The notes under the pieces: generated by a model
Told to the model about the DNA's origin: nothing
The model's input: the letters and a program-made list of their open reading frames with translations, nothing else
Database searches by the model: none
In this document: positions 15,370 through 52,861 of the stretch, piece by piece
Numbering within the stretch: the first letter of the stretch is position 1
Layout: each line of letters opens with the position of its first letter
Assembly (NCBI GenBank): GCA_965207845.1
Contig: CBDBNU010000003.1
Span: 1,385,862-1,449,861 of the forward strand
From: Dehalococcoidia bacterium
Lineage (GTDB): Bacteria; Chloroflexota; Dehalococcoidia; Lucifugimonadales; GCA-2712585
Length of the DNA: 64,000 nt
Direction of reading: 5' to 3'
Position numbers and translations under genes: made by a program

Positions 15370-16157
15370 CTCTCTTTTGCCTATGTGTGTAGTGCAATGT
15401 CTTACTCTTCACTCTTACGACACCTGCCTTCAAGCCCTACCAGGGGCCGACTGCTGCCACCGCCGGTATAGGCTTCCGCCTGCGCCCCGGCATGTCAGAT
15501 GCCATCATCTGTGGGCCGAGGATGGCGGCGTATTGAGGCACGACGACGACCCTCGCAAACCTCTCCATCATGATGACGGACCGGTCGAGGGCGGCGTAGC
15601 CGCCAAATTGGGCGTATCAAACCGGTGCGAAGCGAGCCGCCTGCTCCACCATCTGAGACAGAATCGAGAATCTGTCAATTGACGTTCATGCTGGAATTGT
15701 AGACTGAACTCTCCAGTAGTGTACGAGCGTGACAGTTTGCTCGTCTGTCTACGGATGAATGAAATCTTATTCATCGGCGTATTCCTGTCCCTCCGCATTT
15801 GATGGGAATGAGGCTTGAACCCCCGCATTCAATGTAGTTCATTCACCGTCACTCCTCTTCTGAATCGATACAGCACAATTCGGCCCTTCCCATCTGGAAT
15901 GTAGTTGCACTGGGTGCCCAACTTCACCCGACTAACTGAAGGGTTTGTTCTTCCTTGTGGGGTCTCCCGCCAGATAGGTTATGTCCATTCCTATAGTAAC
16001 CGATGGCTCTCCTCACCATGAGCAATCCAACTCATCTAAGGGAACTTTCCCCTCCCCTACTTGTCCTATTTTAACTGAAGTTCCACAACCCCATGGCTGT
16101 GTTTGCCGCATGGGACTCGATAAGGCTCTGAAGATCGTTCCACATTTCGCCGGACAA

Positions 16158-17837
16158 CTAGAGCAACTTAGCGGCATCTACCTCAGGAAGGTGGCATTTC
16201 TTGTACTTTAGGCCGCTCCCACAGGGACAAGGCCTATTCCTTCCAGTCCTATGCATGTCTCGTAGTGCTCGAAGATATTCCCTTTCCGCCCTTACGAAAT
16301 CGTGCGGGTATTCCTTCCATAAGTCATTGCGAGCGGCCTCGAGGCCGTGGTGTTCCACGTACGCTACTCTATAGAAGAACGGGACAACCAACTCCCCAAT
16401 GAACTTCGGGACATTGATCCTCTCGCCGGTTGCAATCTTGAAATCTAGACAACATCGATTCTCTGGCTTTTCTGGATAGCAGTGCATATCGGCGATGTTG
16501 GTTATTCCCTGTTTTTCCATGATGCCTTGAATGCGCCCACTCGTCTCAATGACCGGTGGCCAGGGGTCATATCTTGAGGGGATAAAGCTGAGTCGAAGCT
16601 CGATTTCAAACCTGTCGCGGATGATGAAGCCTTCTCGAACCGCTCCTGTTGCCGACGCCGATTTCAAGAGTCCATCGCTGGGGTCATATTGTACTGAGAA
16701 TTCCAGTGTCCCAAAGATTCGGTTGCTTTGGGCTTCGTAGATTAGGCCGGGCTGCTCCCGGTTCAGGCGGCCAATGTCGACGTCAGACATTGAGACGGTG
16801 ACACCCTTGACTTCGGCATTCTTTATGGCAGTTGCAGCATACGGACTTCGCGGCCTTACCGGAGCATAAGGCGGCAATACAGTCCGGCCTCCGCTGGGAC
16901 CGCCGGGTGGTTTGCCTAGAGATGCGTCCCCGTCGCCACCCTTAGAAGATCCTTTGCCAAAGTCGTCGCCGAATAGTCTTCGCCACAACTTGATCGCATC
17001 CTCACTCGATACTGCATCCTTAGCATCTCTTGCAGACTGGGCATGAGAGTGAATCCTGTTTCTGAAGTTGGCGTATTTGGTCTGATCCCAGTGCCTGTTG
17101 AAGGTTTCCGACGGAAGCACCGGATTCCGGATCTGAGGCATTATGGGATGTAGCTGAAGGAATTGGTCTATTCTACCGAGTACCGTCACCAATGTATCAG
17201 CGACAGTTCGCACCGCTTCAGTCCCCTCGTCCCACTCTTCTATCGTGTTTCCTGCAAGAGTGGTGAGTAGAATAGATTTGGCGGTGAAATTGTTCTTGTG
17301 GTCTCGAAGGTATTTCAGCAATCTGACCACTCGCTTGAGATTGCCATCCGTGATCCGGTTACGATGGTTGAATCAGTCTCGGTAGCCCGTTCCATCAGTC
17401 TCCTCGAGTTCATTGTCAATCCGATTGCAGACAAAGTGTTCGCCGTCGATGGTGATGCGGGGAACCACGTCAAGATGAAAGTCACCGGCGTAATCGACCG
17501 TAACGCATCGGGTCTTGAGACGAAGCTTGTCGGCGTAATTTTTGTTCTCGTTCAAGGTCCTGCGAATTGTGCTGACGTATTCTTTGGCTTCCCACTCGTC
17601 ATTCGGGTTCATTACGATCTGCATATCGGCGTCGTATTCGTCGTTCTCATCAACGGGCTTTATCAGCGTGCCAAGGGCATGTGAGCCCTGACGCTCCATC
17701 TTCTGGTACCCGGTTAGGTTGTCCCGTAGGTAGCTGTTCACCGCCGAAACACTGGTATTCAACCGGTCAAGCCGGGTTGGGTTTAGATTGACTTCATCCC
17801 GGAGAAAATCTTGGAAATCCCTGTTGTTCTTTGTCAT
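16158..17837 (-). pseudogene. SMODS/CD-NTase-like nucleotidyltransferase fused to an unassigned C-terminal domain ending in a SEC-C motif; interrupted by one in-frame TGA
   Basis: ORFs 17373-17837 and 16158-17330 are in the same frame (507 nt apart). They are separated by TGA at 17373-17375 in the context GYRD*FNHRN. NTase motifs are QGSHALGTLIKP and EYDADMQIV, followed by VVRLLKYLRD. The C-terminus is RPCPCGSGLKYKKCH. Confidence 0.75.
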
Positions 17838-35563: not shown

Positions 35564-35721
35564 GATGCCGGAGGCCTCACCACATACCCGTCTCGTGGAA
35601 GCTTCCGAGGCGGCATACGCCTCTACAGTTGAAGCCGCCCGGTTGAGGCGCGAATCCCTCCGAGACTCTATAATCAGCCACATTGGCTCTAGACAGGAAG
35701 CGTAACCAGGAGGAGACAACG

Positions 35722-37251
35722 ATGCCCCTAACAACGCAGGAACTGGAATCCAAGCTGTGGCAGGCCGCCGACATCCTGCGCGGCCAAATCGATTCCTCTG
35801 ACTACAAGAACTATATCTTCTCCATTCTCTTCCTGAAGCGCCTTTCAGACCGGTTCGAAGAGGAGGTCCAGAACGCCGTTAGACACGGTCTGCCACGAGA
35901 TATAGCCCTCATCGACCGCGACGAGCACGAGTTCTTCGTCCCGGAAGATGCCCGATGGTCCACCATCACAACCGCATCCATGAACCTGGGCGAAGCCCTG
36001 AACGTTGCCAGCCACGCCGTCGAGGAGGCAAACACACCCCGCCTGGACGGCGTACTATCCCCAACCAACTGGAATGACGAATCCAAGCTGGGCAGTCCCG
36101 CCAACCGCGAGCGCATCATCCGCAGCCTGATCAACCACTTCGGCGACCTCGACCTGCGAGACGAAAACCTCAGGGTCGATTCCTCTGGCGTGGGCAACGT
36201 CTTGGGCGACGCCTACGAGTACCTCATCAACAGGTTCGCCGACGACGCCGGCAAGAAGGGCGGCGAGTTCTACACGCCTCGCCCCGTGGTTCGCCTCATC
36301 ATCGAATTGCTCCAGCCCGAAGAGGGCATGCGAATCTGTGATCCCACCGCCGGCTCCGGCGGCATGCTCATCTACGCCGCCCAGTATGTGCGGGAGCAGG
36401 GCGGAGACTACCGCAACCTCGCGCTCCACGGCCAGGAGCGCAACCTGGGCACCCTGGCCATCGGCAAGCTCAATCTGCTCCTTCACGGCCTGCGAGCTGC
36501 CCGCCTGGAACCCGGCGACGTCATCGCCGAACCGGGCCTGGTCGACTCGTCGGGCCGCCTCTTATCCTACGACCGCGTCATCGCCAATCCCCCCTTCAGT
36601 CTGAAGAACTGGGGGCACGACTTCGCACCCAACGACCCTCATCACCGCTTCGACCGCTACCAAGCCATCCCGCCCAAGACCAGGGGCGACCTGGCCTTCC
36701 TCATGCACATGCTCGGCGTCACCAACTCCCAGGGCATGGTCGGCGTGGTCATGCCCCACGGCATCCTCTTCCGCGGCGGCTCCGAGGGTTAGATTCGCAA
36801 GGGCATCATCGAGACGGACCTGTTCGAGGCCATCATCGGCCTGGCCCCCAACCTCTTCTCCGGCGCCAGCATCCCCGTCGCCATCTGCGTCCTCAACAAG
36901 GCCAAGCCCGCCGACCGACGCGGCAAGATTCTCTTCATAGACGCCGCGCAGGAGGGTTACTTTCGACAGGGCAAGGCTCGCAATTTCATCGACCCTGAGC
37001 ATATCGAAAGGATAGTCCAGGCCTACACAGCCTTCGAAGACGTGGACCGCTTCACCCATATAGCGGACATGGAGGAGATCGAAGAAAACGACTTCAATCT
37101 GAACATCAGCCGGTACGTGGACACCACCGAGCCGATAGAAGTGATGAGCGTTGAGGACGCCCTAGCGCAGCTTCGTCAGGCGGAGCGCAAGCGAGACGAG
37201 GCAGTGGCGAAGATGAACACCCTCCTGGCTGAGTTGGGGTTTGCCGATTGA
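35722..37251 (+). pseudogene. hsdM: type I R-M methyltransferase subunit HsdM with in-frame amber codon
   Basis: MPLTTQELESKLWQAADILRG.., DPTAGSGGML, NPPFS. TAG at 36790-36792 lies in GGSEG*IRKGIIE. The downstream ORF 37042-37251 is in the same frame and carries the HsdM C-terminus. ATG 35722 has an AGGAGG RBS. Confidence 0.85.
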
Positions 37252-37320
37252 CAATATCGGTGATTCTGGTCATCGCAATGCTACAATAATAGTCACGTGT
37301 GAGTGTAAAAGGAGAACGCT

Positions 37321-37518
37321 ATGGCAACGGACGGCAACTCAACCGGCGGCAGAACCATGAAGGCGTCAGAGTGCAAAGCCAAGTGCCTCCAACTCATGGA
37401 TGAGGTGGCAGAAAGCGGCACGGATAAGGGCCGGATGAGGATCATTGGCGACATCGTATCTCCCATGCCTGCCGAGTGGTTCGAGGATTCCGACGACTCA
37501 AGGAAGGAACTGTTTTGA
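37321..37518 (+). CDS. Phd/YefM-like antitoxin, apparently internally deleted
   Basis: MKASECKAKCLQLMDEVAESG...IIGDIVSPMPAEWFED resembles Phd/YefM-type antitoxins but lacks the central segment. Confidence 0.45.
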   Translation: MATDGNSTGGRTMKASECKAKCLQLMDEVAESGTDKGRMRIIGDIVSPMPAEWFEDSDDSRKELF

Positions 37519-37571
37519 TACTCCTGGACACTCACGTCATATTCTGGCTCCGAACCGGAATCTGCGTTTGA
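37515..37571 (+). pseudogene. 18-codon remnant of a VapC/PIN toxin
   Basis: TTGA start/stop overlap with the antitoxin. Hand translation (L/M)ILLDTHVIFWLRTGICV* is the canonical VapC N-terminus, then a stop. Confidence 0.45.
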
Positions 37572-37587
37572 GGTCGCAGGCCAGGCT

Positions 37588-37824
37588 ATGCCAACATTAC
37601 TGAGAGAAGGACCGTTTCGTTTCTTCTTCTATCTCGGTGACCGGGGAGAGCCTCCTCATGTGCACGTGCAGCGCGACAACAACATCGCCAAGTTCTGGTT
37701 GAACCCGGTTACCCTGGAACGCAGCGGAGGCCTGAGACGCTCGGAGATTCGCCGGGTTGAGCGCATCATCGAAGACCATCAAGACTCATTCTTAGGAGAA
37801 TGGCATGTACGTTTTAACGACTGA
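37588..37824 (+). CDS. DUF4160-domain protein
   Basis: 78-aa ORF. FRFFFYLGDRGEPPHVHVQRDNNIAKFWL matches the DUF4160 pattern. Confidence 0.8.
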   Translation: MPTLLREGPFRFFFYLGDRGEPPHVHVQRDNNIAKFWLNPVTLERSGGLRRSEIRRVERIIEDHQDSFLGEWHVRFND

Positions 37825-38167
37825 AGTCAGTGTGCCTGAGGCCATGTCAATTGCAGTGACGGAGGACACCCTCACTGCCGATCTCTCAGACGGCAGGACA
37901 ATCTCGGCGCCGTTGGCCTGGTATCCCCGCCTGGGGCGCGCAAGCTCCGAAGAGAGGGGCAACTGGGAGTTGATCGGCGGTGGTCAGGGGATCCACTGGC
38001 CTGATTTGGACGAGGACATCAGCGTCGAGATGCTGCTGGCGGGTCGGAAGTCCGGCGAAAGCCACCGATCCTTTCAGCAGTGGCTTGAGGCGAAGCAGGA
38101 AGGTCGGGGGTTAACGCTGTACGAACTCACCGCCCATGAGACGGAAAGGCAACGGGATAGTGACTAG
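37805..38167 (+). CDS. DUF2442-domain protein
   Basis: LTADLSDGRTISAPLAWYPRL...GIHWPDLDEDISVEMLL is typical of DUF2442. The real start may be ATG 37844 (MSIAVTEDTL). Confidence 0.7.
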   Translation: MYVLTTEVSVPEAMSIAVTEDTLTADLSDGRTISAPLAWYPRLGRASSEERGNWELIGGGQGIHWPDLDEDISVEMLLAGRKSGESHRSFQQWLEAKQEGRGLTLYELTAHETERQRDSD

Positions 38168-39410
38168 CAGGACGGACATACTGGACAGCTGGAAGTTGGT
38201 GCGCTTGGGGGATGTGGCAGCCGTTGAAATGGGTCAATCTCCTCCTGGCCAAACAGTAACGGAGTGGAATGGCGGCTTTGTTCACTATGGAGGGCTACCC
38301 TTTATTCAAGGAAATGCAGAATTTGGCAGTAAGACACCTGAACCCTCGAAATGGTGTGCCAAACCAATAAAGATAGCTCATCCAAATGATGTCCTCATCA
38401 GCGTAAGAGCGCCAGTAGGCCAAACCAACAAGGCTGGCGAAATCATTTGTATAGGACGTGGTTTAGCTGCAATCCGATTTGAAGAATCTAGTCAATCATT
38501 CGGTTGGCACACCATTAACCACAGGAAGGCGGCGTTTGAGCGACTTTCACAAGGCACTACGTTTATGGCAATTGGTGGTGATGCTCTTCGTTCTCTCTCT
38601 ATCCTCCTCCCGCCCCTCTCAGAGCAGCGAGCCATTGCCGAGGTGCTGGACTCCATCGACGAGGCGATAGAGGCGACGGAGGCCGTGGTCGCCGCCACCG
38701 AGCAGCTGCGCAACGCCCTGCTTCACCGCCTGCTGTCCCACGGCGTCCCAGGCTGGCATTCCGAGTGGAAGGAAGTCCGCGGCATCGGCACCATCCCCGC
38801 CGACTGGGACGTGGTGCGGCTGGGGGAGGTGGCGGGATTCATTACAAGCGGTTCAAGGGGATGGTCTCGTTATTTTCGTTCAACTGGGGCTTTTTTCGTT
38901 AGAAGCCAAAACATCACAGCCCAAGGGATTGACCGTTCTGATGCAATTTTTGTGGATCCACCCAATGACGGGGAAACTGAGCGGACTCGCATACGTCGCG
39001 GGGACATACTGATATCTATCACCGGAGAACCAGGTAAAGCGACCATAGCAAAGAAAGACATTGGACTGGCTTTTGTGAGCCAACATGTTGCACTTGTGAG
39101 ACTCCATGACCGTCGGTTAAGTTCCTTTGCAAGTAGGTTCTTGCAAGGTCCAAAAGGACACGATCAGTTTAGGAAAATGGCCTACGGTCAAACCAGGCCA
39201 GGCCTAAATTTGTCGAATATTGGCGAAGCTAGAATGGTCCGCCCTTCACTAGCTGAACAACAGGCCATCGCGGAGCTGCTGGACAGCGTTGACGAGGCAA
39301 TTAAACAGGGACGTGCAGAAACGGAAATGCTACAATCACTAAAAGCATCCACCGCAGACGCCTTGCTGACGGGGCGTGTGCGGGTGAAAATGGAGGACTT
39401 CGTTGAATGA
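38136..39410 (+). CDS. hsdS: type I R-M specificity subunit HsdS (two TRDs)
   Basis: 424-aa ORF. Conserved repeats are LPPLSEQRAIAEVLDSIDEAIEATE and PSLAEQQAIAELLDSVDEAIKQG, separated by two AT-richer variable regions. Confidence 0.9.
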   Translation: MRRKGNGIVTSRTDILDSWKLVRLGDVAAVEMGQSPPGQTVTEWNGGFVHYGGLPFIQGNAEFGSKTPEPSKWCAKPIKIAHPNDVLISVRAPVGQTNKAGEIICIGRGLAAIRFEESSQSFGWHTINHRKAAFERLSQGTTFMAIGGDALRSLSILLPPLSEQRAIAEVLDSIDEAIEATEAVVAATEQLRNALLHRLLSHGVPGWHSEWKEVRGIGTIPADWDVVRLGEVAGFITSGSRGWSRYFRSTGAFFVRSQNITAQGIDRSDAIFVDPPNDGETERTRIRRGDILISITGEPGKATIAKKDIGLAFVSQHVALVRLHDRRLSSFASRFLQGPKGHDQFRKMAYGQTRPGLNLSNIGEARMVRPSLAEQQAIAELLDSVDEAIKQGRAETEMLQSLKASTADALLTGRVRVKMEDFVE

Positions 39411-40334
39411 AGATTGAAACAATAGCCGAACAGCTTCTCTTTGCCACACTTCGAATCGAAGCACCCCCTTGGGTTGGAACCGGGTTCATTATGACTCACA
39501 AGTGGGCAGAAGACAAAAAGGGGCCGTTCCTAGTAACCAACAAGCATGTAATTCAAGGAAGTAAGACCGGTAGAATCACATTTACCAAGAAGGATCCATC
39601 TGGCGAGTCCTATAGTCCTTCAATTGGACTGACTAGTGCAGTAAATTTTTCTCAGTCTGATTGGCAGTGGACAGGGCATCCTTCTAGGGACATAGATATC
39701 GCAGTATTGCCTTTGGCCCCTATCACAAGCCATTTGGAGAACATCGGGCACCCTCCATATTTCCGAAGTATACCAACTTCCGCGATTCCAGAAGGCGACG
39801 CGCTTCAAGACTTTGACGTTGTTGAGGAAATCTTGTTTGTGGGTTACCCGAGTGGCGTCTACGATGGAGCGAACAATCTGCCAATCTTCCGAAAAGGCAT
39901 TACCGCCACATGTCTGACTATCGACTATGAGGGAAGACCAATTTTCCTCATCGACGCCTCAGTATTTCCGGGTAGCAGTGGCAGTCCTGTGTTCATTTAT
40001 TCCAAAGGGCAGTTGGACTACAAGAAGGGGAACTTTAAAGGGAGGAAGTCGCTTTTTCTTGCTGGGAATTCTGGGAAGCGCCTATTATCGTAATGAGGAT
40101 GGCTCCCTATCGTATGTTGAGGAAGTTCCGGCAGCAGTCAAACCTGTATTTCGAACCACTCAAATGATTGACCTTGGAGTTGTATATAAGGCGAGGGCCA
40201 TCGTGGAGACAATCGAGCACCTATTGCGCCAACGCGGAGAACTGCCTTTGGACGACGAATCGGTCACACCCACAATCCCACCGCTACCAGCTACAACCTC
40301 CGCATCGCCCCCAATTCCTAGTGTCCACGGGTGA
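39407..40334 (+). pseudogene. trypsin-like (S1/Trypsin_2) serine protease with an apparent 1-nt frameshift
   Basis: Catalytic triad contexts are VTNKHVI, RDIDIAVLPL and PGSSGSPVF. The reading frame switches around 40037-40058 (A3G3 / T5 runs). ORF 39927-40334 continues with FFLLGILGSAYYRNEDG. Confidence 0.7.
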
Positions 40335-40635
40335 TGCAAGGAATGACCTGAAAGGGCCTTACCTGAGAGTGATATTGCACAGCTATAAGCAACCGCTGAA
40401 GGAGAAACCAACTTCCACCCAACTTCCCTTCCCAGTTTACTTCCCGTTGCAAGAATGGACATGACATCCCCACCTGACTCGACAAAAACGACTACAGAGA
40501 AGTCCCTGCACAAGACGAATTTGCAGGCTAAACTCAATTGAAATGTCTCGTAGAACTCGTTTGATGCAATTCAAGGGGATCTGGTTTGTAGCTAGATTAT
40601 CTTCACTCGTAGAATGATGGCTTGAGAGGTCATTC

Positions 40636-41373
40636 ATGTATAAGCAGCATAATCTTTTTGATAGCCCCCCTTCTGATGCAGAGTTGTGGAGATACTTGGA
40701 CTTCACCCGGTTTGTCTCTCTCCTGGACAAACAGGCCATCTTTTTCCCCAGAGCAGACAAGCTAGGAGATCCGTTTGAGGGTTCGTACACCAAGTTTAAT
40801 GTAGCGATTCGCCCGACCATATATAAGGACAAGATTCCGGATCATGCTCTTCAACAAATGTCTGACTTTGTGAGGGAATCTAGAAGATTCACCTTGATCA
40901 GCTGTTGGCATTTGAATGATCACGAATCGGCGGCGATGTGGAAACTTTATTCGAGGGAAAGTGACGGAATCGCGGTCAAGACTACTTTTGGATCATTCAC
41001 CCAGTCCCTTAAAGCAGATGAAGATATCTTCGTTGGAAAGGTGAACTACATAGACTACGAGAATACTTTCATCCGTGAAGATAATCTATTTGCACCATTC
41101 CTATACAAGCGTAAGAGTTTCGAGCACGAACGCGAGGTAAGGGCGATCAGTCAGAAGTTTCCTACGTCTGATGGCAAAACTGATCTGTCTCACGACATCT
41201 ACCACAGTGGAGCTTACTTTGACGTCGATATCTCTCTTTTGATAGAGGGAGTAGTTGTGGCACCTTATGCCGCGGACTGGTTTCTACAACTTGTGCAGTC
41301 CGTTGCAAAAACCTACGGTCTCGACACTCCTGTCTATAGGTCTTCCTTGGCAGAAACCCCTATTTGGAGTTAA
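40636..41373 (+). CDS. DUF2971-domain protein
   Basis: 245-aa ORF. LWRYLDFTRFVSLLDKQAIFFPRADKLGDPFEG matches the DUF2971 N-terminal signature. Confidence 0.75.
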   Translation: MYKQHNLFDSPPSDAELWRYLDFTRFVSLLDKQAIFFPRADKLGDPFEGSYTKFNVAIRPTIYKDKIPDHALQQMSDFVRESRRFTLISCWHLNDHESAAMWKLYSRESDGIAVKTTFGSFTQSLKADEDIFVGKVNYIDYENTFIREDNLFAPFLYKRKSFEHEREVRAISQKFPTSDGKTDLSHDIYHSGAYFDVDISLLIEGVVVAPYAADWFLQLVQSVAKTYGLDTPVYRSSLAETPIWS

Positions 41374-41374
41374 C

Positions 41375-44300
41375 TTGTTGACCTCCCCCTCCAAACTCAA
41401 CGAATACAACCACACCGAAAGGCTCGCCCTTGACCTGCTGATGAAGCTGGGCTGGAACTATGTGCCCAGAAACACCCTGTCATCGGAGCGTGGAGACGAA
41501 CGTCAGGTGCTGTTGAAGGGCCGGCTGAGGTCGGCCCTGCTTCGTCTGAATGAGTGGATGATGGATGAGCAGGAAGCTGGCCGCGTCATCCGTGAACTTG
41601 AACACATCGACGCCCTGGGCATGGCCCGCAACCAGCGCGTCCACGAGTACCTCACCTACGGCATGCCCCTGACCGTCGACCGTTCAGGAAGCCGTCAGAC
41701 ACGCACCGTCCGCTTTTTCGACTTTGACCACCCGGAGGGCGGCCTCAACGAGTTCGTCGTCACCACCCAGTTCCGCGTCCGACGCGGCAACGAGCGCGGC
41801 GGTCCGGAGAACGACGAACGCATGGTCATCCCGGACCTGGTGCTATTCGTCAACGGCATTCCCTTGGTAGTGATGGAGGCCAAGTCCCCCTCCCTGCTGG
41901 ACGTGTGGAAGACCAAGGCCGTTCGTCAGCTGCGCCGTTACCAAGAGACGGGACCCGAGTGGCACGGTAGCGGCGCGCCTGAGCTCTTTCACTACAACTT
42001 GCTATGCGTCGCCCACTGCGGCGCGTCGGCGGCGTATGCCGGGCTGAGGGCACCCGAGAACGCCTACTTTGAGTGGAAGTCCGTCCTCCCATACTCGGAG
42101 GACGAGGTGAAGAAACGCTTTGGCGTCGAACCAAAAGGCCAGGCCCAGCTAATTATTGGCTTGCTGTCGCCCGCCACCCTTCTGGGCATCCTCCGCGACT
42201 ACGTAGTCTACGAGCCGCAAGGGGGCCGTCTCGTCAAAAAGCTGCCCCGCTACCAGCAATACAGGGCCGTCCGCACGGCGCTGGTCCGGATATTGACCGG
42301 GCGAAAGCCGGAGGAGCGGGGTGGCGTCGTCTGGCACACCCAGGGGTCGGGCAAGTCGCTGACAATGCTCTGGCTTGCCACCAAGCTGCGACGGGAGCCT
42401 CGCCTCAGCAGCCCGACCATCGTGGTGGTCACCGACCGCCGGCAGCTTGACCGCCAAATCTCCGACACATTTCAGAGATGCGGCTTCCCCGCGCCGGAGC
42501 AGGCCGCTTCCAGCAAGGATCTGCGACGACTCCTCACCACCGGCGCCGGCCGCACTATCATGACAACCATCCAGAAGTTCGAGGATGCGCTGACCGTCCC
42601 CGGTGGCGAACTCGACGTGCTCAATCCGTCGGAAAACGTCATCGTCATGGTAGACGAGGCCCATCGCACCCAGTTCGGCATCCTCGGCAGTCGCATGTCC
42701 AGGGCGCTGCCCAACGCCGTCCTCGTTGGGTTCACTGGCACGCCCATAGACAAAGGATTCCAGCGCAGCACCATGCGTCGCTTCGGAAGTCTCATCGACT
42801 CATACACCATCCCCCAATCCGTGGCAGACGGCGCTACCGTGCCCATCTTCTACGAGGCGCGGCTGCCGGAGCTAGCCATTGAGGGGCCAGAGACGCTGGA
42901 CAAGCTGTTCGACGCCATGTTCAGCAAAGAATCCCCGGAGGTGCAGCTTCGTCTCCGTCGTAGATACGCCAATAAGGAAACTGTTGCGGAGGCGCAGCGC
43001 CGGATTGAGATGGTTGCCCTCGATATTTCCGAGCATTTCCAGAAACGAGTTCGCCCCAACGGATTCAAAGCCCAGGTAGTCGCGCCCAGCCGGGCGGCGG
43101 CACTGCGGTACGCCGAACGACTGAACAGCTTTGGCTTGCCCGCCTACCCCATCATCACGACAAGCGCCAACGATGGTCCAGAGTTTAAACTGGCCCGGGA
43201 GCTGGACCAGGAGCAGATTACCAACTCCTTCGTCGATCCTGAGGGTGACCCGGAGATACTGGTGGTTGTAGACATGCTCTTGACAGGCTTCGATGCGCCG
43301 GTGGAGCAGGTGTTGTATCTGGACCGTGCGCTGCGAGAGCATGGCCTCCTTCAGGCCATCGCCCGCGTCAACCGGCGGTTCACCCACAATCAGGACGGCG
43401 TGGTCACGGAGAAGCAACATGGCCTGGTGGTGGACTATCACGGCGTGTCCCGCGACCTCGAAGAAGCGCTATCGACCTTCGACTGGCCGGACGTCCAAAA
43501 CACGATGCAAGAGCTGGAGGAGGACCCCGCCATCGTCATCGAGGCGGCGGCAGTACAAGCGGAGTCGCACTTCGGTGGACATGACCTGTCTGACACCTGG
43601 GCGTGCGTAGGCATCTTCGCTGCGGACGCCCACACGGACGGCGATTTCAAGGCCGACCTGTTCGAAAAGTTCAACGCCGATTACCGTCAGTTTTCTGGAC
43701 TAATGGACAGGTTCCTCCCGGATCCCCGCGCCCTCGACTACACCGACAGGCTGGCGCGGCTCACAGAGATTCGCGCCTATGTCCGCGCTCACTTCCTGGG
43801 CGAAGACGCCAGCGTGGACTGGACCGAGATTGGCGCGAAGGTGAAGCGTCTGGTGGATGAGCGCATTAGCGCCAGTGTAAGAGAGTTGATGAGACCGGTG
43901 TCCATTCTGGACCAGGACTTCGACCAGAAGATTGCATCACTTCCCCACGACGAGGCACGGGCTTCACTCATGGAACACGCCATCCGCGCCCGGATTCACG
44001 AAGGACTGGCTACGAATCCCGCATTCTACGAGAAGCTATCGGAGCAGTTGGCGCGCATCATTCAGGACCTACGCAACCGGGTGATTGACTCGGCGGAGGC
44101 TTGCAAGCGATTCTCCGTGGTCCTAAGGGTCATTAAGAGCGAAGCAGAGATCGCCGCCGAACACGGTCTATCGCCGGTGTCCTTCGCAATCTACGAATTA
44201 CTTGACGAGGACCCAACAAAGGTCTCTTCGGGAAGTGTAGGGGAAGTACAAGCTCAATATCGCACGAAATTTGATGAGGAAACCAAGGGCATGGCCCGAA

Positions 44301-44485
44301 AGGTGGAGTCCATAATTGCCCTTCGCACGGGAGTTGTGGACTGGCAGTCCAACGATGAAATCAAGCGGCTCATGCGCCGCGACATCAAGCGAGATCTCAG
44401 GGACACGAAGGAATACACCGAAGAGCAATTGGAGACCCTGGCCGAGAGGATTGTGGCTCTCGCAATCAACAGGAGCAGCCAGTGA
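41375..44485 (+). CDS. hsdR: type I restriction enzyme R subunit HsdR
   Basis: Nuclease motif PDLVLFVNGIPLVVMEAKSP, helicase motifs VWHTQGSGKSLTM and VMVDEAHRTQ, FTGTP. The probable start is TTG 41375/41378. The ORF track start at 41255 overlaps the upstream gene. Confidence 0.9.
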   Translation: MLTSPSKLNEYNHTERLALDLLMKLGWNYVPRNTLSSERGDERQVLLKGRLRSALLRLNEWMMDEQEAGRVIRELEHIDALGMARNQRVHEYLTYGMPLTVDRSGSRQTRTVRFFDFDHPEGGLNEFVVTTQFRVRRGNERGGPENDERMVIPDLVLFVNGIPLVVMEAKSPSLLDVWKTKAVRQLRRYQETGPEWHGSGAPELFHYNLLCVAHCGASAAYAGLRAPENAYFEWKSVLPYSEDEVKKRFGVEPKGQAQLIIGLLSPATLLGILRDYVVYEPQGGRLVKKLPRYQQYRAVRTALVRILTGRKPEERGGVVWHTQGSGKSLTMLWLATKLRREPRLSSPTIVVVTDRRQLDRQISDTFQRCGFPAPEQAASSKDLRRLLTTGAGRTIMTTIQKFEDALTVPGGELDVLNPSENVIVMVDEAHRTQFGILGSRMSRALPNAVLVGFTGTPIDKGFQRSTMRRFGSLIDSYTIPQSVADGATVPIFYEARLPELAIEGPETLDKLFDAMFSKESPEVQLRLRRRYANKETVAEAQRRIEMVALDISEHFQKRVRPNGFKAQVVAPSRAAALRYAERLNSFGLPAYPIITTSANDGPEFKLARELDQEQITNSFVDPEGDPEILVVVDMLLTGFDAPVEQVLYLDRALREHGLLQAIARVNRRFTHNQDGVVTEKQHGLVVDYHGVSRDLEEALSTFDWPDVQNTMQELEEDPAIVIEAAAVQAESHFGGHDLSDTWACVGIFAADAHTDGDFKADLFEKFNADYRQFSGLMDRFLPDPRALDYTDRLARLTEIRAYVRAHFLGEDASVDWTEIGAKVKRLVDERISASVRELMRPVSILDQDFDQKIASLPHDEARASLMEHAIRARIHEGLATNPAFYEKLSEQLARIIQDLRNRVIDSAEACKRFSVVLRVIKSEAEIAAEHGLSPVSFAIYELLDEDPTKVSSGSVGEVQAQYRTKFDEETKGMARKVESIIALRTGVVDWQSNDEIKRLMRRDIKRDLRDTKEYTEEQLETLAERIVALAINRSSQ

Positions 44486-45210
44486 GCGAAAGGGGCAGCG
44501 TCCAATTCGGTGACACGACCATCACCTACGAGGTCCGTCGCAGCAAGAGGCGAAGGAAGACAGTAGAAATTACGGTGGATGGCGGCGGTGTTCAGGTCGC
44601 TGCGCCGGTCTCTACGCCAAACAGCCGGCTAAAGTCGATTGTACGCAAGCGAGCTCCCTGGATTCTAGAAAATGCAACAGAGTCGTTGCTTGAGATCCCT
44701 CCAAAGCGTTTCGTCAGCGGCGAGACGCTACCCTATCTTGGACGCAACGTTCGCATGATTTTCAACCAGGAGGATGTGCGATCTCCTAAAGTCCGCTTTG
44801 ACCACTGGCGGTTTCGCATAACCGTGCCACAAGCCTTGACCGGAGACAAGCGGTACGATGCAATTCGCCGTTGCATCGTCCGATGGTATAGACATCGCGC
44901 CGCCGTGCGGATGCCGGAGGTCGTAGAGCGTTGGGCATCGGTACTAGGGAGTAATGGAAGGTCGCCCGTCCTGATCCGCGACCAGCGTCAGAGGTGGGGA
45001 AGCTGCGCCCCCGACGGCACGTTACGTTTCAACTGGCGCGCCATGATGCTGAAACCCTCCCTCATCGAGTACATAGTCGTCCACGAACTTGCCCATTTGA
45101 CCCACAGGAACCATTCTACCGACTTCTGGAGCCTAATTCGGAAGGTGATGCCTGACATGCAGCAGCGTCGGAGAAGCCTGGGGGATGCAGGCAAGTTGCT
45201 CCCCCTTTAA
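44482..45210 (+). CDS. DUF45 / M48-like (YgjP/SprT-like) zinc metallopeptidase
   Basis: 242-aa ORF overlapping the hsdR stop by 4 nt. VVHELAHLTHRNHSTDFWSL (HExxH...H). Confidence 0.85.
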   Translation: MSERGSVQFGDTTITYEVRRSKRRRKTVEITVDGGGVQVAAPVSTPNSRLKSIVRKRAPWILENATESLLEIPPKRFVSGETLPYLGRNVRMIFNQEDVRSPKVRFDHWRFRITVPQALTGDKRYDAIRRCIVRWYRHRAAVRMPEVVERWASVLGSNGRSPVLIRDQRQRWGSCAPDGTLRFNWRAMMLKPSLIEYIVVHELAHLTHRNHSTDFWSLIRKVMPDMQQRRRSLGDAGKLLPL

Positions 45211-46654: not shown

Positions 46655-49225
46655 ATGAAAACGAACTGGATAAAGAGAATATTTGGAGAAAAAGAAGAAA
46701 ACCCCGTTAAGCTCCTTGCTGTGACGCCTCCCCGCAAGGGGAAGCGCACCATGGTGGGGGTGGAGAACATGCTCGGCACCCTGGCTTTGCCAGAACCCTT
46801 CTCCCTGGAGATAGCAGGCGACGTGGACGGGGTGACCCTCATGGCCAGGTGCCGGAGCCGGTCCATGGTGAAGCAGCAGCTGGAGGCCCTCTACCCCCAG
46901 GCCCTCATCAACGAGGTGTCGCCTACTGAGGATCCCCTCAGAATGGAAGGGGGAGAGCAAGCCTGGTCAACTGCATTGAGGATCGAAGGGCCCGAGTATG
47001 TGCCCCTGAGGGTCTTCGGGGACGACGACCTGGTGGTTCAGGAGTCGGACCCGCTTATACCCCTCATAGGTTCCATGGCGAATCTACAGCAGGGAGAGAG
47101 GCTGGTGGCTAGACTCCACCTGACCTCCCTGGGCCACGACTGGGCCCAGGCGCACCAGAGCAAGCTGTACAACGGACAACAGCAACACTATCCCACTGAA
47201 TCCCCCCAGACCCAGGACGCGAAGCGCCACAGCAGCGAGGGTGTGCGCATGATCGTCATGGGGATTGGAGCAGCGGCAATCCTCCGGGGCTACTTCTGGG
47301 TGCGCCAGGGGGAGACGTGGAAGGCAATCCTGCTGGGAGCGGGCATAGTGGCAGGGGGAATCCTGGCGGGCTGGGCCTGGCATCGGTGGAAGAAGGCCCG
47401 CAACCGGCCCTACGACCCCCTGCTCATCAAGGACAAGCTCTCCCGGCTGGCCTTTTCAGCCCACCTGGAAGTCACAGCCATCCTGTCGGAGCACGGTACC
47501 GAGGAACGGGCGAAGGCGATGCTTGACACCGTCACGGCGGCCTATCGCCACTACGACAATGCCGCCGGCGCCCACTTCAAGCCGGGCAAGGTGAAGGAGG
47601 TGGTACAGATAGTGGATGGCCTTCATCCACCGCCCAGAGGGCTGCTGAGCAGCCGAAACGTCCTGGGTGTGAGGGAGGTGGCTACGTTGTGGCACCCGCC
47701 GGGAGAAGGATACGACATGCCCCTGGTGGCCCGCTCCGGTGCAAAAGCCCTCATGCCCACCGCCAAGGGGGTCAAGAAGGGAGCGCTGGTGGGGGAGAGC
47801 ACTGCGAGAAAAGGACGAGAAGTTCGCTTCCCGGACGACCTGCTGAAGCGTCACCACCTCTACGTGGCACGCACCCGCATGGGCAAATCCACCCTCATGC
47901 ACCACATAATAGTCCACAAGATGAGGGAGAGGGCGGCGGGAAGGAGCAGGGACGCCATCGTGGTGGTGGACCCCCACGCCGACCTGGTGAACTCCCTGCT
48001 AGAGCACGTGCCCCCAGAGCTTGCGGACAAGGTGCGGCTCATAGACCTGGCCGACGAGGAGAGGATACCGGGCATTAACCTGCTGGACACCAGGGTATTC
48101 AGCGACAGGGACCGCCCCGCCGACTCGGTGGTTCACATAGCCAGGGGCCTGTGGGACCAGTGGGGTCCCAGGATGCAATCTATCCTGGAGCATTCGATCA
48201 AGACCCTCCACGAGGCCAACGAGAGCATGGACCCAGAGGAACAGTACACCATACTGGACGGATTGAAGCTGCTCTCGAACGAGGCCTTCCGCTCCGAGGT
48301 GCTGCAGAAGATAGATGACTTCTACATCCTCCAGTGGTGGGCCAACACCTTCGCTGGTTGGAGCCGGGACTACAAGGCCGACTCCCTAGCCCCGGTGCAG
48401 ACCCGGCTCTCCTACTACGCCTCATCGAAGAGGGCCAGGGCTATCCTGGGTCAGTCCCGCTCCACCATAGACATCAGGAAGACAATCCAGGAGGGTGGTG
48501 TCCTGCTGGCATCCACCTCCCAGGCCACGGCGGGCAGAGACGTGGCAGCCCTCGTGGGGTCCTCATTGCTCAACCTAGTGGACGCCGTCATCAGGGAGCA
48601 GGGTATTTTGCCCCCAGAAGAGAGGCGGGGAGCCCTCGTAGTGGTAGACGAGATGCAGTCCATGCCCGGGGTGGACTACGAGTCCATGCTGTCGGAACTG
48701 GGTAAGTTCGGAGCCTCCTTCATCCTTGCCACCCAGAGCCTAGCCAGACTTCAGGATATTTCCCCCTCTCTCCAGGACTCCCTGCTGGCCAATATGGGTT
48801 GTCTTGCCGTATTTCAGATGGCCGCCTCCGACGCCCGTGAACTGGTGTGGGAGCTGGACCGGGACCGGGTGACGGAAGAGGACGTGACCTCCTTGCCGGT
48901 GCACCACTGCTACGTGAGGGCCACGGTGGGGAAGGAGAGGATGCCCACCTTCTCCATGGCGGTGAAGAAGCCGGAGGAGGGAGACCCGGCAATGGCGGCT
49001 AAGGTACGGGAGGCAGTAAGAGAGTACACCGTTTCAGGCCAGAGCATTGCCGATAAGGAAGTCGAGGCTGCCAAGCTGATGGATGACTTCAAGAAGGGCC
49101 TGGACGAACTGAAGGGCAGGAAGGCGAAGCCGCAGAATGGGAAAAAGCCCAAGGGTCGCCGGCGACGAAATCGGAAGCGGTCAGACGGGGGGCCGCAACC
49201 CTCAAATGGGGAAAGGCCTGGATAA
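46655..49225 (+). CDS. FtsK/HerA/TraD-like P-loop ATPase with 2 TM helices (type IV coupling protein-like)
   Basis: 856-aa ORF. TM pair VRMIVMGIGAAAILRGYFWV / ILLGAGIVAGGILAGWAW, Walker A TRMGKSTLM, Walker B ALVVVDEMQSM, FILATQSLARL. Confidence 0.7.
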   Translation: MKTNWIKRIFGEKEENPVKLLAVTPPRKGKRTMVGVENMLGTLALPEPFSLEIAGDVDGVTLMARCRSRSMVKQQLEALYPQALINEVSPTEDPLRMEGGEQAWSTALRIEGPEYVPLRVFGDDDLVVQESDPLIPLIGSMANLQQGERLVARLHLTSLGHDWAQAHQSKLYNGQQQHYPTESPQTQDAKRHSSEGVRMIVMGIGAAAILRGYFWVRQGETWKAILLGAGIVAGGILAGWAWHRWKKARNRPYDPLLIKDKLSRLAFSAHLEVTAILSEHGTEERAKAMLDTVTAAYRHYDNAAGAHFKPGKVKEVVQIVDGLHPPPRGLLSSRNVLGVREVATLWHPPGEGYDMPLVARSGAKALMPTAKGVKKGALVGESTARKGREVRFPDDLLKRHHLYVARTRMGKSTLMHHIIVHKMRERAAGRSRDAIVVVDPHADLVNSLLEHVPPELADKVRLIDLADEERIPGINLLDTRVFSDRDRPADSVVHIARGLWDQWGPRMQSILEHSIKTLHEANESMDPEEQYTILDGLKLLSNEAFRSEVLQKIDDFYILQWWANTFAGWSRDYKADSLAPVQTRLSYYASSKRARAILGQSRSTIDIRKTIQEGGVLLASTSQATAGRDVAALVGSSLLNLVDAVIREQGILPPEERRGALVVVDEMQSMPGVDYESMLSELGKFGASFILATQSLARLQDISPSLQDSLLANMGCLAVFQMAASDARELVWELDRDRVTEEDVTSLPVHHCYVRATVGKERMPTFSMAVKKPEEGDPAMAAKVREAVREYTVSGQSIADKEVEAAKLMDDFKKGLDELKGRKAKPQNGKKPKGRRRRNRKRSDGGPQPSNGERPG

Positions 49226-49226
49226 G

Positions 49227-50885
49227 ATGAGATCGGAAGAAAGGGATACGGATATCCTGGAGAAGCTGGCTGCCATGCCGTTCTTGGACAGGCTGGAGCT
49301 GGCCGCCGTCTGTGATGTGTCGGAGGGTTTGGCCCACAACGCTTTGGCCAGCCTGAGGGGTCAGGGACTCGTCGGCTTCGTGAAACACAGATCTCCACTG
49401 ACCTCCACGACACGACGGTACTACGTCGCCGCAGAGGGAGTAAAGCGGCTCGCCGCAGAGGGGACCACTAGCCAAAGGAAGGTGCTTCGCGAGTACTCGG
49501 TGTCGGCTCAGTGGCAGCGGCTTCTGCTGGAGCGTCTCGACGCCGTGGTGGTCATCTACCGGCTGGCGTCCGCGATGGCCGCCGTCACAGGGTCCCTACA
49601 GATTCGGTGGTATCGTAACGGGCCCTTGGACTGCGTCATCATCCTATCCGACGGTCTCACAGTCGGTGTTGTAAGGAGGGGCCTCACAGCCGACGAGACC
49701 AGTTTCAATAAGCGGCTGTGGCGACTTCTGGGTACGGACCGGCCGGTGCCGGGTGCCCTGCTCGTCATGTTGCCCGACGATGTGCGGCTCCGTCGAGCCA
49801 GAAGGCGGTTGGCGCAGACTTCCCTGCCCGTATACCTGTCTTTGGAGGAGGATGTGGCTCAGGCGGATGCCGACTCGGAGGTCTGGCGTCTGCCATCCTT
49901 TTCCAACAGGCTGAACCTCAGGTACATCCTGTCCCGTGTGCCGCAGCGAGGAAGGATTCCCGACGAGAGGGTGGCGAAGAAGGCGTCGCTTCCGATGGAC
50001 CAGAAGGCTTCAAAGCCTCCGGCTGAAGTCAAGGTATGCATGCTATCAACGATTCTCAGGGCCGCTGAGAAACGCATGCTGGATTACCTCTTCCAGTGGC
50101 CTTTGGCCACAGTTCGGGAATTGGCAGGTATGCTGGGCGTTTCCCATGCCCGCATTTACCAAGCCACAACCAACTTGTCCAGGTATGGCTTGGTGTCTAA
50201 GCCGGGCATCAATGGCAGACGTGGGCTTGCTCTCAGTGACAGGGGATTGGCCTTACTGGCGAGGAGGGACAGGACCTCGGTCTCCGCCATCCTGAAGCGG
50301 TGGAGCGTAGCTTCCGAGAATGGCGCGGACATCGCATCCTGGCGTGACGTGACCGGGAAGCGAATCCGACATCTGTCGAGACTCGTTGATCACACCGGCG
50401 CGGTGTATCGGTTCATGGCGGCCCTGGTTCACCAGGCCAAGATTAGGAAGGGGATTCGTGTATTGCAAATATCCCCGGCGGACCATGCCGCCCGATACTT
50501 CCGGCATGGGGGTCTCCTGCGATCTGTGCATCCAGACGCCTTCGGCGTGGTTCAAAGGGGAGATAGGCGGTGTCCGTTCTTCCTAGAGTGGGAGCGCAGG
50601 GCGGTGAGACCAAGCACAATGTCGGCCCGGCTTGCCCCGTATCTCCGGTACTACTACACTCACAATCCCCAAGACGATCACGGGACAACTCCCCTGGTGC
50701 TGATTGTCTTCGATGACTACCTGGTGGAGGCGAACTTCCTTGGTGTCGCACGAAGGGAGATGGCAAGGACGGGGGTCAATCTGCCGCTGTGGGTATCCCA
50801 CAAGGAGATGATTGAGAAAGAGGGGCCCCTGGGTAAGGCCTGGCGCAATCCAGACGTGCTTGCTCCAACCCCCATTTTTCACTAA
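49227..50885 (+). CDS. replication-relaxation family protein (two winged-helix modules)
   Basis: ATG lies 1 nt after the T4CP stop. DILEKLAAMPFLDRLELAAV...LRGQGLV and MLDYLFQWPLATVRELAGML...YGLV. C-terminal HPDAFGVV...FFLEWERR is typical of Replic_Relax. Confidence 0.6.
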   Translation: MRSEERDTDILEKLAAMPFLDRLELAAVCDVSEGLAHNALASLRGQGLVGFVKHRSPLTSTTRRYYVAAEGVKRLAAEGTTSQRKVLREYSVSAQWQRLLLERLDAVVVIYRLASAMAAVTGSLQIRWYRNGPLDCVIILSDGLTVGVVRRGLTADETSFNKRLWRLLGTDRPVPGALLVMLPDDVRLRRARRRLAQTSLPVYLSLEEDVAQADADSEVWRLPSFSNRLNLRYILSRVPQRGRIPDERVAKKASLPMDQKASKPPAEVKVCMLSTILRAAEKRMLDYLFQWPLATVRELAGMLGVSHARIYQATTNLSRYGLVSKPGINGRRGLALSDRGLALLARRDRTSVSAILKRWSVASENGADIASWRDVTGKRIRHLSRLVDHTGAVYRFMAALVHQAKIRKGIRVLQISPADHAARYFRHGGLLRSVHPDAFGVVQRGDRRCPFFLEWERRAVRPSTMSARLAPYLRYYYTHNPQDDHGTTPLVLIVFDDYLVEANFLGVARREMARTGVNLPLWVSHKEMIEKEGPLGKAWRNPDVLAPTPIFH

Positions 50886-51103
50886 TCTGGTAGTTACCGA
50901 GAAATCCCCAGGCATCAATTTCGACAGAAGGCTACGCCGTCAATCGTTAGAGAGACTCTTCGATTCCAACTCAAGTAGATTCTGCTTCCCGGAGAATAGA
51001 CGCTTTCTTGTTGCAGTGGGCCAGAGTGAGAAAAATTGGAAGCGTTTCTGGACGAGCAAGACAGCTAACCTCAAAACAATGAAAGTAGAAAAGGGAGGAC
51101 GCT

Positions 51104-52861
51104 TTGTATCAGACCGGCGATACAATTAAGAAGACACTAGATGAAATTCATAGGCATGATCTAGTTTTGCCAGCCATCCAGCGCGAATTTGTATGGCGAC
51201 CGGAGCAGATATGTCGATTGTTTGATAGTCTCATGCAAGGCTATCCCTTCGGCACATTTCTTTACTGGCGCGTCGATCCGGAAAACAGCGGCAAGTTCAA
51301 GTTCTTTGATTTTGTTCTTAATTATCACCAGCGTGACAACCCACACTGCCCTCCATTGCCTCCAATGCCGAACCGTCACCTGACTGCCGTACTCGATGGT
51401 CAACAACGGCTGACTGCTCTCAATATCGGACTCAGAGGGAGTATCGCCCGCAAACTGCCATATAGGTGGTGGAACACTCCCGGCGCATTTCCCACCAGGC
51501 GGCTATGTCTGGATCTCCTCTGGCAACCCGACGAAGACGACGAAGAAGGATTGAGATATCGATTCAGCTTCCTAACCGATGAGCAATCCAGTGTTTCCCA
51601 AGAGGGAGTCTGTTGGTTTCCTGTCGGGCAAGTGATGTTTCTGCAGAATGCAGGACCTGCCATGACTCAGTGGCTCAACGATCGACTTCCACAGGAACAA
51701 GTGACGCCTGCCCACGAAACACTCTATGAGTTGTATCAAGTCATCCACAATAAGCATCTCGTTGCGTACTATGAAGAAACCGGCCAGGAACTGGACAAAG
51801 CTCTCCAGATCTTCATTCGAATGAACGACGGCGGCACGCCCCTTTCCCATTCCGACTTGCTCTTATCAATTGCTGTGGCGCAATGGACTGATCACGACGC
51901 CCGGCAAGAGATTCATGATCTGGTAGACGAACTCAATCGCTTGGGAACTGGTTTTACGTTCTCGAAAGACCTCGTTCTAAAGGCCGGTCTTATGTTGAGT
52001 GACATTGGTAGGGTCGGATTCAAGGTCGATAATTTCAACCGAGAGAACATGGACACGTTTGAGAGGAAATGGGAAGACATCAAACAGGCTCTCATTCTGA
52101 CTGTTCAGCTCGTTGCTTCCTTCGGATTCACAGGCCGTAACTTGACGGCACACAACGCAATTCTGCCGATAGCATACTACCTCTACATCAAGAATCCGGG
52201 AGATTCTTTTCTTTCACACAGCAGGTTTGAGCAGGACAGACGTGAGATTCGTGAATGGCTTATCAGAAGCCTGCTGAAATCCGGTGTGTGGGGCAGCGGT
52301 CTAGACACACTATTGACTGACTTGAGGCGTGCCATTAGAGAGAGTGATGACAGCACTTTCCCAACTTCAAGAATCCTGGATGCGATGTCTCGTCGAGGGA
52401 GACAGCTCCTCTTTGATAATGAAGAGATCGAGGACCTAGCGGATATGCGGTTCGGAGACAGACTGACGTTTGCTCTGCTATCTTTGCTATTTCCTTTCGT
52501 AGATCTACGTAATCAGTTTCATCTGGACCACATCTTTCCGGCGTCCAGATTCACAGATGGTAAACTTAGGGACGTAGGCGTTTCCGAAGAAAAAATAGCA
52601 ACATTCAAAAGGCAAAAAGATGGTCTGGCCAACCTTCAGCTCCTACAGGGACCCTTGAATACGGAGAAGAGCGCCGCGATGCCGGACAAGTGGTTGTCCG
52701 ATACGTTTCCTAACGACGTTTCCAGAAGTGAATATGAGCAACTTCATCTACTTGGGAACGTGCCTAGCTCCATCTGTGAATTCGACGTCTTCTACGATGC
52801 GCGAAGAAATCGATTGAAGGAAAGGATTGTACGACTACTAGGGAGACAATCTTCCATCTGA
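51104..52861 (+). CDS. GmrSD-type (DUF262 + DUF1524) type IV restriction endonuclease
   Basis: 585-aa ORF. LPAIQREFVW, LDGQQRLTAL (DUF262/ParB-like), C-terminal HLDHIFPAS...N (His-Me/DUF1524). Confidence 0.85.
   Translation: MYQTGDTIKKTLDEIHRHDLVLPAIQREFVWRPEQICRLFDSLMQGYPFGTFLYWRVDPENSGKFKFFDFVLNYHQRDNPHCPPLPPMPNRHLTAVLDGQQRLTALNIGLRGSIARKLPYRWWNTPGAFPTRRLCLDLLWQPDEDDEEGLRYRFSFLTDEQSSVSQEGVCWFPVGQVMFLQNAGPAMTQWLNDRLPQEQVTPAHETLYELYQVIHNKHLVAYYEETGQELDKALQIFIRMNDGGTPLSHSDLLLSIAVAQWTDHDARQEIHDLVDELNRLGTGFTFSKDLVLKAGLMLSDIGRVGFKVDNFNRENMDTFERKWEDIKQALILTVQLVASFGFTGRNLTAHNAILPIAYYLYIKNPGDSFLSHSRFEQDRREIREWLIRSLLKSGVWGSGLDTLLTDLRRAIRESDDSTFPTSRILDAMSRRGRQLLFDNEEIEDLADMRFGDRLTFALLSLLFPFVDLRNQFHLDHIFPASRFTDGKLRDVGVSEEKIATFKRQKDGLANLQLLQGPLNTEKSAAMPDKWLSDTFPNDVSRSEYEQLHLLGNVPSSICEFDVFYDARRNRLKERIVRLLGRQSSI

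Follow-up and report, generated by a model that had tools for sequence, protein, structure and literature searches.

A probable cargo slot between hsdS and hsdR in a type I restriction-modification operon of a Dehalococcoidia bacterium, holding a protease pseudogene and an intact DUF2971 gene

The window analyzed here is a stretch of 64,000 nucleotides from a Dehalococcoidia bacterium (GenBank assembly GCA_965207845.1, contig CBDBNU010000003.1, positions 1,385,862 to 1,449,861). It contains a type I restriction-modification (R-M) operon in which two accessory genes, coding for a trypsin-like serine protease and for a protein of the DUF2971 family, stand between hsdS and hsdR. A first-pass annotation of the sequence had proposed that the two form one defence module. 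According to our analysis, they are quite probably two independent, horizontally acquired single-gene cassettes: the DUF2971 gene is intact and would code for an NAD+-dependent ADP-ribosyltransferase (ART) acting as an abortive-infection effector, and the protease gene, as well as hsdM of the same operon, is a pseudogene. The hsdS-hsdR junction of this type I R-M lineage would be a cargo slot, filled in different genomes by different self-contained accessory genes of horizontal origin, within an operon plan that would read hsdM, DUF4160/DUF2442, hsdS, cargo, hsdR and YgjP-like peptidase. In the window, the first cassette would be a cytoplasmic S1 protease of the PADLOC family PDC-S45, translationally coupled to hsdS, and the second one a DUF2971 protein of the family PDC-S31. 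Because the protease gene carries a frameshift and hsdM an internal TAG codon, the locus is best read as a recently decaying type I R-M operon with modular cargo.

Open reading frame (ORF) and domain reading bears out the position of both genes between hsdS and hsdR, all on the plus strand. The protease gene extends over 39407..40334, with a first frame at 39407-40093 and a second one running on to 40334, and its start overlaps the stop of hsdS in the ATGA at 39407-39410. Direct reading of the letters then gives a non-coding spacer of 301 nt (40335..40635), with GAGAGG 6 nt 5' of the ATG of the DUF2971 gene (40636..41373). The TAA of the latter (41371-41373) lies 1-4 nt before the start of hsdR (41378..44485), for which there are in-frame TTG codons at 41375 and 41378. 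TTG 41378 aligns with the ATG of hsdR in the locus of the closest protease relative (L169; loci are numbered with the prefix L). Also, the impression that both genes are richer in AT than the hsd genes was correct, as GC content is 0.488 in the protease gene and 0.454 in the DUF2971 gene versus 0.614 in hsdM and 0.606 in hsdR. At third codon positions, GC is 0.47 and 0.50 versus 0.82 and 0.76, respectively, which points to a foreign origin of both cargo genes. The spacer between them resembles neither the remainder of the window nor any of the fetched loci, and promoter and terminator scans of it stayed at chance level. With 301 nt between them, the two genes are not coupled to each other.

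The proposal of a pair was confronted with neighbourhood surveys from both sides. For DUF2971, one genome per species was scanned, which gave 80 loci, mostly from sponge-symbiont-type metagenome-assembled genomes (Dehalococcoidia, Poribacteria, Caldilineaceae). For the protease, 94 loci were collected, including 80 metagenome loci, and 55 of the 86 loci analyzed had at least 1 kb of sequence downstream. It turned out that the protease adjoins DUF2971 in none of 82 other DUF2971 loci, and that none of the 94 protease loci has a DUF2971 gene, the 80 metagenome loci included. The two genes are thus not co-conserved elsewhere, an outcome which the first-pass annotation had itself named as speaking against its proposal. 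Trypsin_2 was absent among the 149 immediate neighbours of DUF2971 scanned over all loci; these comprised ResIII (7), N6_N4_Mtase (6), Methylase_S (3), TypeIII_RM_meth (3), HEPN (3) and AbiJ_NTD4 (2). The immediate neighbours of the protease in the metagenome loci included Methylase_S (10), phage integrase (6) and type III methylase genes.

Five DUF2971-centred loci share the R-M lineage of the window (L002, L051, L019, L033, L073), with hsdM about 75-82% identical, and hsdR aligns end to end with its relatives at 61-69%. DUF2971 is the sole gene between hsdS and hsdR in L002 and L051, and it has other genes beside it in L019, L033 and L073. Of the two nearest relatives of the DUF2971 gene, L167 (75% identity) has the order hsdS-DUF2971-hsdR and L168 (71%) the order hsdS-Ymh/HEPN-DUF2971-hsdR, and in four Poribacteria loci DUF2971 lies between a type III methylase gene and res. 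On the protease side, L081 has hsdS-protease-hsdR, and in L169 the hsdR start follows the protease stop after about 130 nt. In L082-L084 and L172, two small ORFs and then a PIN toxin gene stand between the protease and hsdR, the short contigs L085 and L086 being parts of the same layout; L170 and L171 have the protease and then DUF3644. In L174-176, the protease stands alone beside a transposase, outside any R-M operon. The slot is modular: in type I operons the protease comes first, coupled to hsdS, and the second place is empty or taken by a PIN toxin-antitoxin (TA) unit, DUF3644 or DUF2971. As further observations on L168, its positions 1-16738 have DUF2971 between a CBASS-type SMODS-patatin pair and a SAVED protein, and the Hypoth_Ymh protein of its slot matches the PADLOC models Aga_HEPN and PD-Lambda-3_B.

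The DUF2971 protein of the window matched PF11185 with 21.2 bits (E = 7.7e-4), for a Pfam gathering cut-off of 22. Nevertheless, the domain call is backed by its relatives and by PADLOC: PF11185 matches occur in 34 of 34 aligned relatives (best 5.8e-7), and the hidden Markov model (HMM) PDC-S31 (PDLC04993) matched at 7.3e-26, residues 1-242 aligning with positions 1-237 of a profile of 245. A precomputed PF11185 match exists on about half of the listed homologues of the family, which comprises 3206 homologues of about 245 aa. In the alignment of 34 sequences, 39 residues are invariant, including Y105 and E167, and E165 is nearly so. The AlphaFold2 (AF2) model of the window protein is confident (pLDDT 91.3, pTM 0.87). 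Its seven best Foldseek matches in the PDB were all DarT proteins (from Thermus, M. tuberculosis and E. coli; probability 0.90-1.00, TM-score 0.35-0.53), the next match having an E-value of 0.1 or worse. Searching the PDB sequences with a profile of the DUF2971 alignment returned nothing at E ≤ 1, so that the link to DarT is one of fold only. When all 34 relatives were scanned against Pfam with E-values up to 10, no further family (DarT or AbiGi, for example) came up, and the fold search of BFVD gave only uncharacterised phage proteins. A survey of 2025 independently groups DUF2971 with DarT, AbiGi and Tox-ART-HYD1, with a conserved Tyr in motif II and an ExE motif III (PMC12522546), and the pattern of Y105, E165 and E167 fits this description in a comparison made by alignment, without structural superposition. 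The protein is most likely an NAD+-dependent ART of the DarT-like branch.

Family membership and fold similarity being observed, we infer the enzymatic activity, an anti-phage role and the abortive mode of action: upon phage infection, the DUF2971 protein would modify nucleic acid or an essential protein and thereby cause abortive infection. It would do so as a single-gene system lacking an antitoxin of the DarG type, as Aristaios does. No ORF for a DarG macrodomain was found next to it, its neighbours being the protease pseudogene, the non-coding spacer and hsdR. Aristaios is a validated single-gene DUF2971 abortive-infection system of 316 aa from a lactococcal plasmid, which blocks phage transcription (PMC11381338, PMC13064643). 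It shares with the window protein the single DUF2971 gene, the predicted ART fold and the lack of an antitoxin gene, and DUF2971 is likewise alone in the slot in L002, L051 and L167. However, Aristaios is longer and plasmid-borne in Lactococcus, whereas the window protein has 245 aa, and the two are likened by domain and fold, not by sequence. DUF2971 of the PDC-S31 type was found on 256 plasmids, 181 of them from Klebsiella and 142 predicted to be conjugative, and Lactococcus was absent from the ten most frequent genera and from the 25 matches listed in this plasmid search. Other copies have neighbourhoods of another kind: in Poribacteria, many have a small SNase-like gene 5' (11-13 loci) and an inosine-uridine nucleoside hydrolase gene 3' (5-8 loci). 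These conserved non-R-M neighbourhoods (groups L040-L060 and L018-L029) adjoin RecG or ABC-transporter genes and might reflect a different role or an undescribed small operon.

The host operon itself is damaged. hsdM, hsdS and hsdR are all present in one operon (Pfam calls for all three), of which hsdS (38136..39410, +; Methylase_S at 9.7e-28, in two stretches) and hsdR (+; HSDR_N, SWI2_SNF2, T1R_D3-like and T1RH-like_C matches) are intact. hsdM (35683..37251, +), with HsdM_N and N6_Mtase matching residues 21-369, is broken off by a TAG in its reading frame (36790-36792). At this codon, AAG, ACG or ACC stands in five relatives, and the C-terminal sequence of HsdM goes on in the same frame beyond it. 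The TAG was confirmed in the Logan unitigs of two sequencing runs (X1 and X2, from one sample, with word depths of 3.6 and 10.3), which are also identical across 36441-38039. Since hsdM is knocked out, the R-M operon is probably non-functional.

The regular position of the cargo suggests an alternative, in which these genes are guardians of the R-M system in the sense of PrrC and EcoprrI, held latent by the Hsd complex and freed when this complex comes under attack from an anti-restriction protein of a phage, so that their place in the operon would be functional. Indeed, in type I loci the protease gene always comes directly after hsdS: the two overlap by 4 nt in the window, L082-L086 and L172, and they are 6-12 nt apart in L081, L170 and L171. 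The protease stop of L081 also overlaps the start of hsdR. DUF2971 is likewise coupled to hsdS and hsdR in L002, L051 and L167. PrrC offers a precedent for a guardian, and DarTG2, embedded in a type I system of enteropathogenic Escherichia coli (EPEC), offers a further one. In the EcoprrI type Ic locus (hsdM-hsdS-prrC-hsdR) as here, the place between hsdS and hsdR is taken by a passenger effector that is transcribed together with the R-M genes. However, where PrrC is an ABC-ATPase/HEPN RNase, the window has a protease and an ART-like enzyme as effectors, and the likeness is one of embedded position alone. Both families also occur away from R-M operons (L174-176, neighbourhoods with integrase and TA genes, many DUF2971 loci) and in type III operons as well. 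Moreover, hsdM is broken here and the DUF2971 ORF is still intact, so that loss of the Hsd complex is evidently not lethal. We therefore regard the guardian role as unlikely. Unlikely, too, is an ordered, layered fail-safe, in which the hsdS-coupled PDC-S45 would be a proteolytic analogue of PrrC and the second place would hold interchangeable back-up toxins (DUF2971 ART, PIN, DUF3644). If it were true, the slot would not be a passive insertion site in this widespread R-M lineage of sponge symbionts.

The first cassette belongs to a family of 2890 homologues of about 289 aa. Its Trypsin_2 match (44.2 bits, 4e-11) lies above the cut-off of 27.6, and the PADLOC model PDC-S45 (HMM PDLC05022) matched both frames, the first at 5.7e-73 over profile positions 11-232 and the second at 3.8e-12 over positions 212-286. 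The trypsin call of the first-pass annotation was thus right, and so was its statement that the contexts of the catalytic residues are present: TNKHV (H47), DIDIA (D97) and GSSGSP (S191) are all in frame 1, and in the numbering of the family alignment the triad is invariant or nearly so in 33 homologues. It had also raised the possibility that the C-terminal extension is a sensor domain. In the AF2 model of an intact, 83%-identical homologue (pLDDT 86), residues 194-260 add four more strands to the second barrel and a terminal helix spans residues 262-274; the last 30 residues make up a disordered, proline-rich tail. A fold search with this homologue matched DegS/HtrA, DegQ and Esp/Spl proteases over the whole length. 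The extension is accordingly the rest of the chymotrypsin fold and a disordered tail, and PDC-S45 is, as modelled, a plain single-domain cytoplasmic S1 protease without a sensor domain. With HtrA/DegS and the staphylococcal Esp/Spl proteases it shares the fold over the whole protease domain of the intact homologue (E about 1e-6 to 1e-7, TM-score to the target at most 0.74) and the H-D-S triad with the GSSGSP motif. It differs from them by the lack of a signal peptide (by inspection) and of a PDZ domain, being cytoplasmic, about 289 aa long, with its proline-rich tail, and set in a defence island. Weak matches to LmuA and to an RT-protease model were also considered as signs of membership in Lamassu or retron systems, and this was rejected, only the shared protease domain being behind them.

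The full-length ORF of this protease is split in the window into an ORF of 228 aa and a shifted tail. The 1-nt frameshift reported by the first-pass annotation is real; its placement at 40037-40058, in a second A3G3/T5 stretch, was about 30 nt too far downstream. With intact homologues as queries, tblastn changes frame between FIYSKG and SWTT (P0123, 83% identity; P0125, 62%), and the DNA alignment to L169, the locus of P0123, has one extra base at window positions 40009-40011. Protein and DNA alignments together put the surplus base at about 40007-40011, in or next to an A3G3 run at 40004-40009, hence a lesion at 40004..40011 (+). The break falls just past the catalytic Ser. It costs the protein half of the second beta-barrel, some four strands, together with the helix at the C-terminus (strands 214-260 and helix 262-274 of the modelled homologue). 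With its double beta-barrel incomplete, the truncated product should not fold, and the surplus base at 40004-40011 would have left this copy of the protease dead.

As alternatives to decay, we considered an error of sequencing or assembly and a frameshift, programmed or phase-variable, by which the protease is turned on and off, and the first-pass annotation had likewise thought of a slippery on/off switch. The site does lie in short homopolymers (A3G3), and apart from it both frames are clean. Also, of the 119 best protease homologues, about 7% are truncated at the C-terminus or shifted beyond the catalytic Ser (P0124, P0126, P0135, P0140, P0155, P0204). However, the unitigs of two separate runs, X1 and X2, give the same sequence, with zero differences and no branch across 38788-42355, and thus a single allele in two read sets. 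A third run from a second sample (X3) covered parts of the locus, the frameshift site lying outside its coverage. Runs of 3 nt are far shorter than the lengths that slip at useful rates, and the run here is only 3+3 nt. The truncated homologues break at differing positions, so there is no conserved shift site, and the sequence has neither a slippery heptamer nor the in-frame stop context of known programmed sites. The same operon also bears a lesion of the substitution type, the TAG of hsdM. We find an error or a switch very unlikely, and the frameshift is read from these alignments and unitigs as a fixed inactivating mutation, not a switch. The truncated homologues could be cases of recurrent inactivation of a costly gene, or contig ends.

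A single two-gene system is more improbable still. In it, the protease might, for instance, be a sensor of infection that activates the ART toxin or sets it free, or the two might be a toxin and its processing partner. Protease-effector pairs are known in other defence systems, and the two genes of the window are adjacent, on the same strand and of similar low GC content. PDC-S31 and PDC-S45 also meet in one type III R-M locus of Poribacteria (L005, L007; 4272-11176), in the order type III mod, PDC-S31, res, PDC-S45 (3.8e-50), though with res between them. Apart from the window, this is the only place where the two share a locus, besides L016, which has a weak protease-like match 6 kb off. We take these co-occurrences as two common R-M cargo genes meeting occasionally. 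The counts of adjacency (0/82 and 0/94) speak against such a system, the closest relative of each gene being found without the other. So does the spacer, which separates the two genes, yet each is tightly coupled to an hsd gene. That the protease is broken and DUF2971 intact would be unexpected for a protease acting as antitoxin or obligatory partner, and PADLOC models both genes as single-gene systems. The missing co-conservation has largely refuted the two-gene system already.

Scarcely any weight is given to the protease as a housekeeping accessory that regulates the R-M system, for example by degrading HsdR in restriction alleviation, and not as an autonomous effector: it is established that ClpXP proteolysis of HsdR controls type I systems in E. 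coli, the coupling to hsdS and hsdR is tight and the lineage keeps a second, YgjP-like peptidase attached to hsdR, but only a minority of the loci in this R-M lineage have the protease (it is missing from L002, L051, L167 and L168), and the protease occurs without R-M genes in L174-176 and next to integrases and has a composition foreign to the operon.

Several points weigh against reading the locus as two independent cassettes with a DarT-like effector in a cargo slot. A loose association of PDC-S31 and PDC-S45 does exist (L005, L007, L016). The DUF2971 score of the window protein is 0.8 bits below the Pfam cut-off, and its likeness to the DarT fold is moderate, the TM-scores quoted above coming with high rmsd. 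About four-fifths of the DUF2971 loci have no adjoining R-M genes, and a non-defence role is possible for part of the family, given the housekeeping-looking neighbourhoods in Poribacteria. In PADLOC, both families are untested candidates. Finally, X1 and X2 are from the assembly's own sample and stored as contigs, in which rare variants are invisible.

The first-pass annotation had stated that it knew of no described system with such a pair. In fact, each gene is a catalogued single-gene candidate, and DUF2971 has been published as a DarT-like ART family, of which Aristaios is a validated member. The view that the first-pass annotation took of the genes as R-M-embedded defence candidates stands, both families having been picked for their embedded context (PADLOC PDC-S45, PDC-S31; bioRxiv 10.1101/2024.01.29.577857). 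This study by Payne et al. proposed 145 untested single- or multi-gene PDC candidates from genes embedded in type I R-M, BREX and DISARM operons; the names PDC-S31, PDC-S45, DUF2971 and trypsin are absent from the portions of its text and supplements that were consulted. The two window proteins have strong HMM matches to the PADLOC families and the same embedded context. They differ from them in that the families are listed as separate candidates, whereas here both are in one slot, with PDC-S45 frameshifted and hsdM broken. A further comparison is with the RRDM island of the EPEC type I R-M system, RptR-HsdM-HsdS-DarT-DarG-HsdR-M48, which carries DarTG2 between hsdS and hsdR (PMC12255303). In both cases, hsdS and hsdR flank the gene of an ART-fold toxin, and a metallopeptidase gene of the M48/YgjP type closes the operon. 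However, the window is without the macrodomain antitoxin DarG, no RptR regulator was identified in it, and DUF2971 is only remotely DarT-like (TM-score 0.35-0.53, about 8-10% identity).

The remaining genes of the operon follow a recurrent plan. A DUF4160-like ORF (37519-37824, +; weak DhiT-like match) and a DUF2442 gene (37805-38167, +; 3e-21) lie between hsdM and hsdS. L019, L082, L083 and L167 have a DUF4160+DUF2442 pair at the same place and, of the two, DUF2442 alone was called in L081, L168 and L172. This arrangement resembles either a second cargo slot or a pair of fixed accessory genes. L172 has an additional HicAB pair between hsdM and hsdS. At the other end, the gene of a YgjP-like metallopeptidase of the M48/WLM type (44482..45210, +; YgjP-like match 9.6e-52) starts in overlap with the hsdR stop. 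Such a gene follows hsdR in every relative examined (L002, L019, L033, L051, L073, L081, L082, L167, L168, L170, L172), and is thus a constant companion of hsdR in this lineage. The window gene parallels the M48 gene of the EPEC RRDM island.

Beyond the operon, the window is a dense defence island, with features at 547-35563 and 46655-52861. Its genes code for a DUF1156 protein, an SNF2/NOV_C helicase, an OLD-like AAA_15-TOPRIM ATPase, SIR2-HerA, GmrSD, a DUF4011/AAA_11/AAA_12/MTES_1575 helicase-nuclease of 1907 aa and an IS110 transposase. T4CP-like and Replic_Relax (relaxase-like) backbone genes are also present. Both cargo genes are passengers of a type I R-M operon, as the first-pass annotation had it, and this operon lies within a large defence island.

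The locus is an ordinary example of a documented pattern and not a new two-gene system, and its importance beyond annotation is small. With both the protease and hsdM broken, the window copy offers a poor basis for experiments. Nevertheless, it adds one more case, from uncultured bacteria of the sponge-symbiont type, of swappable single-gene defence candidates between hsdS and hsdR. The analysis also maps the combinatorial content of one cargo slot, in which the protease, DUF2971, a PIN toxin-antitoxin unit, DUF3644 and Ymh/HEPN take part, and it connects the untested PDC-S31 of PADLOC with the DarT-like ART fold and with Aristaios, a validated system.

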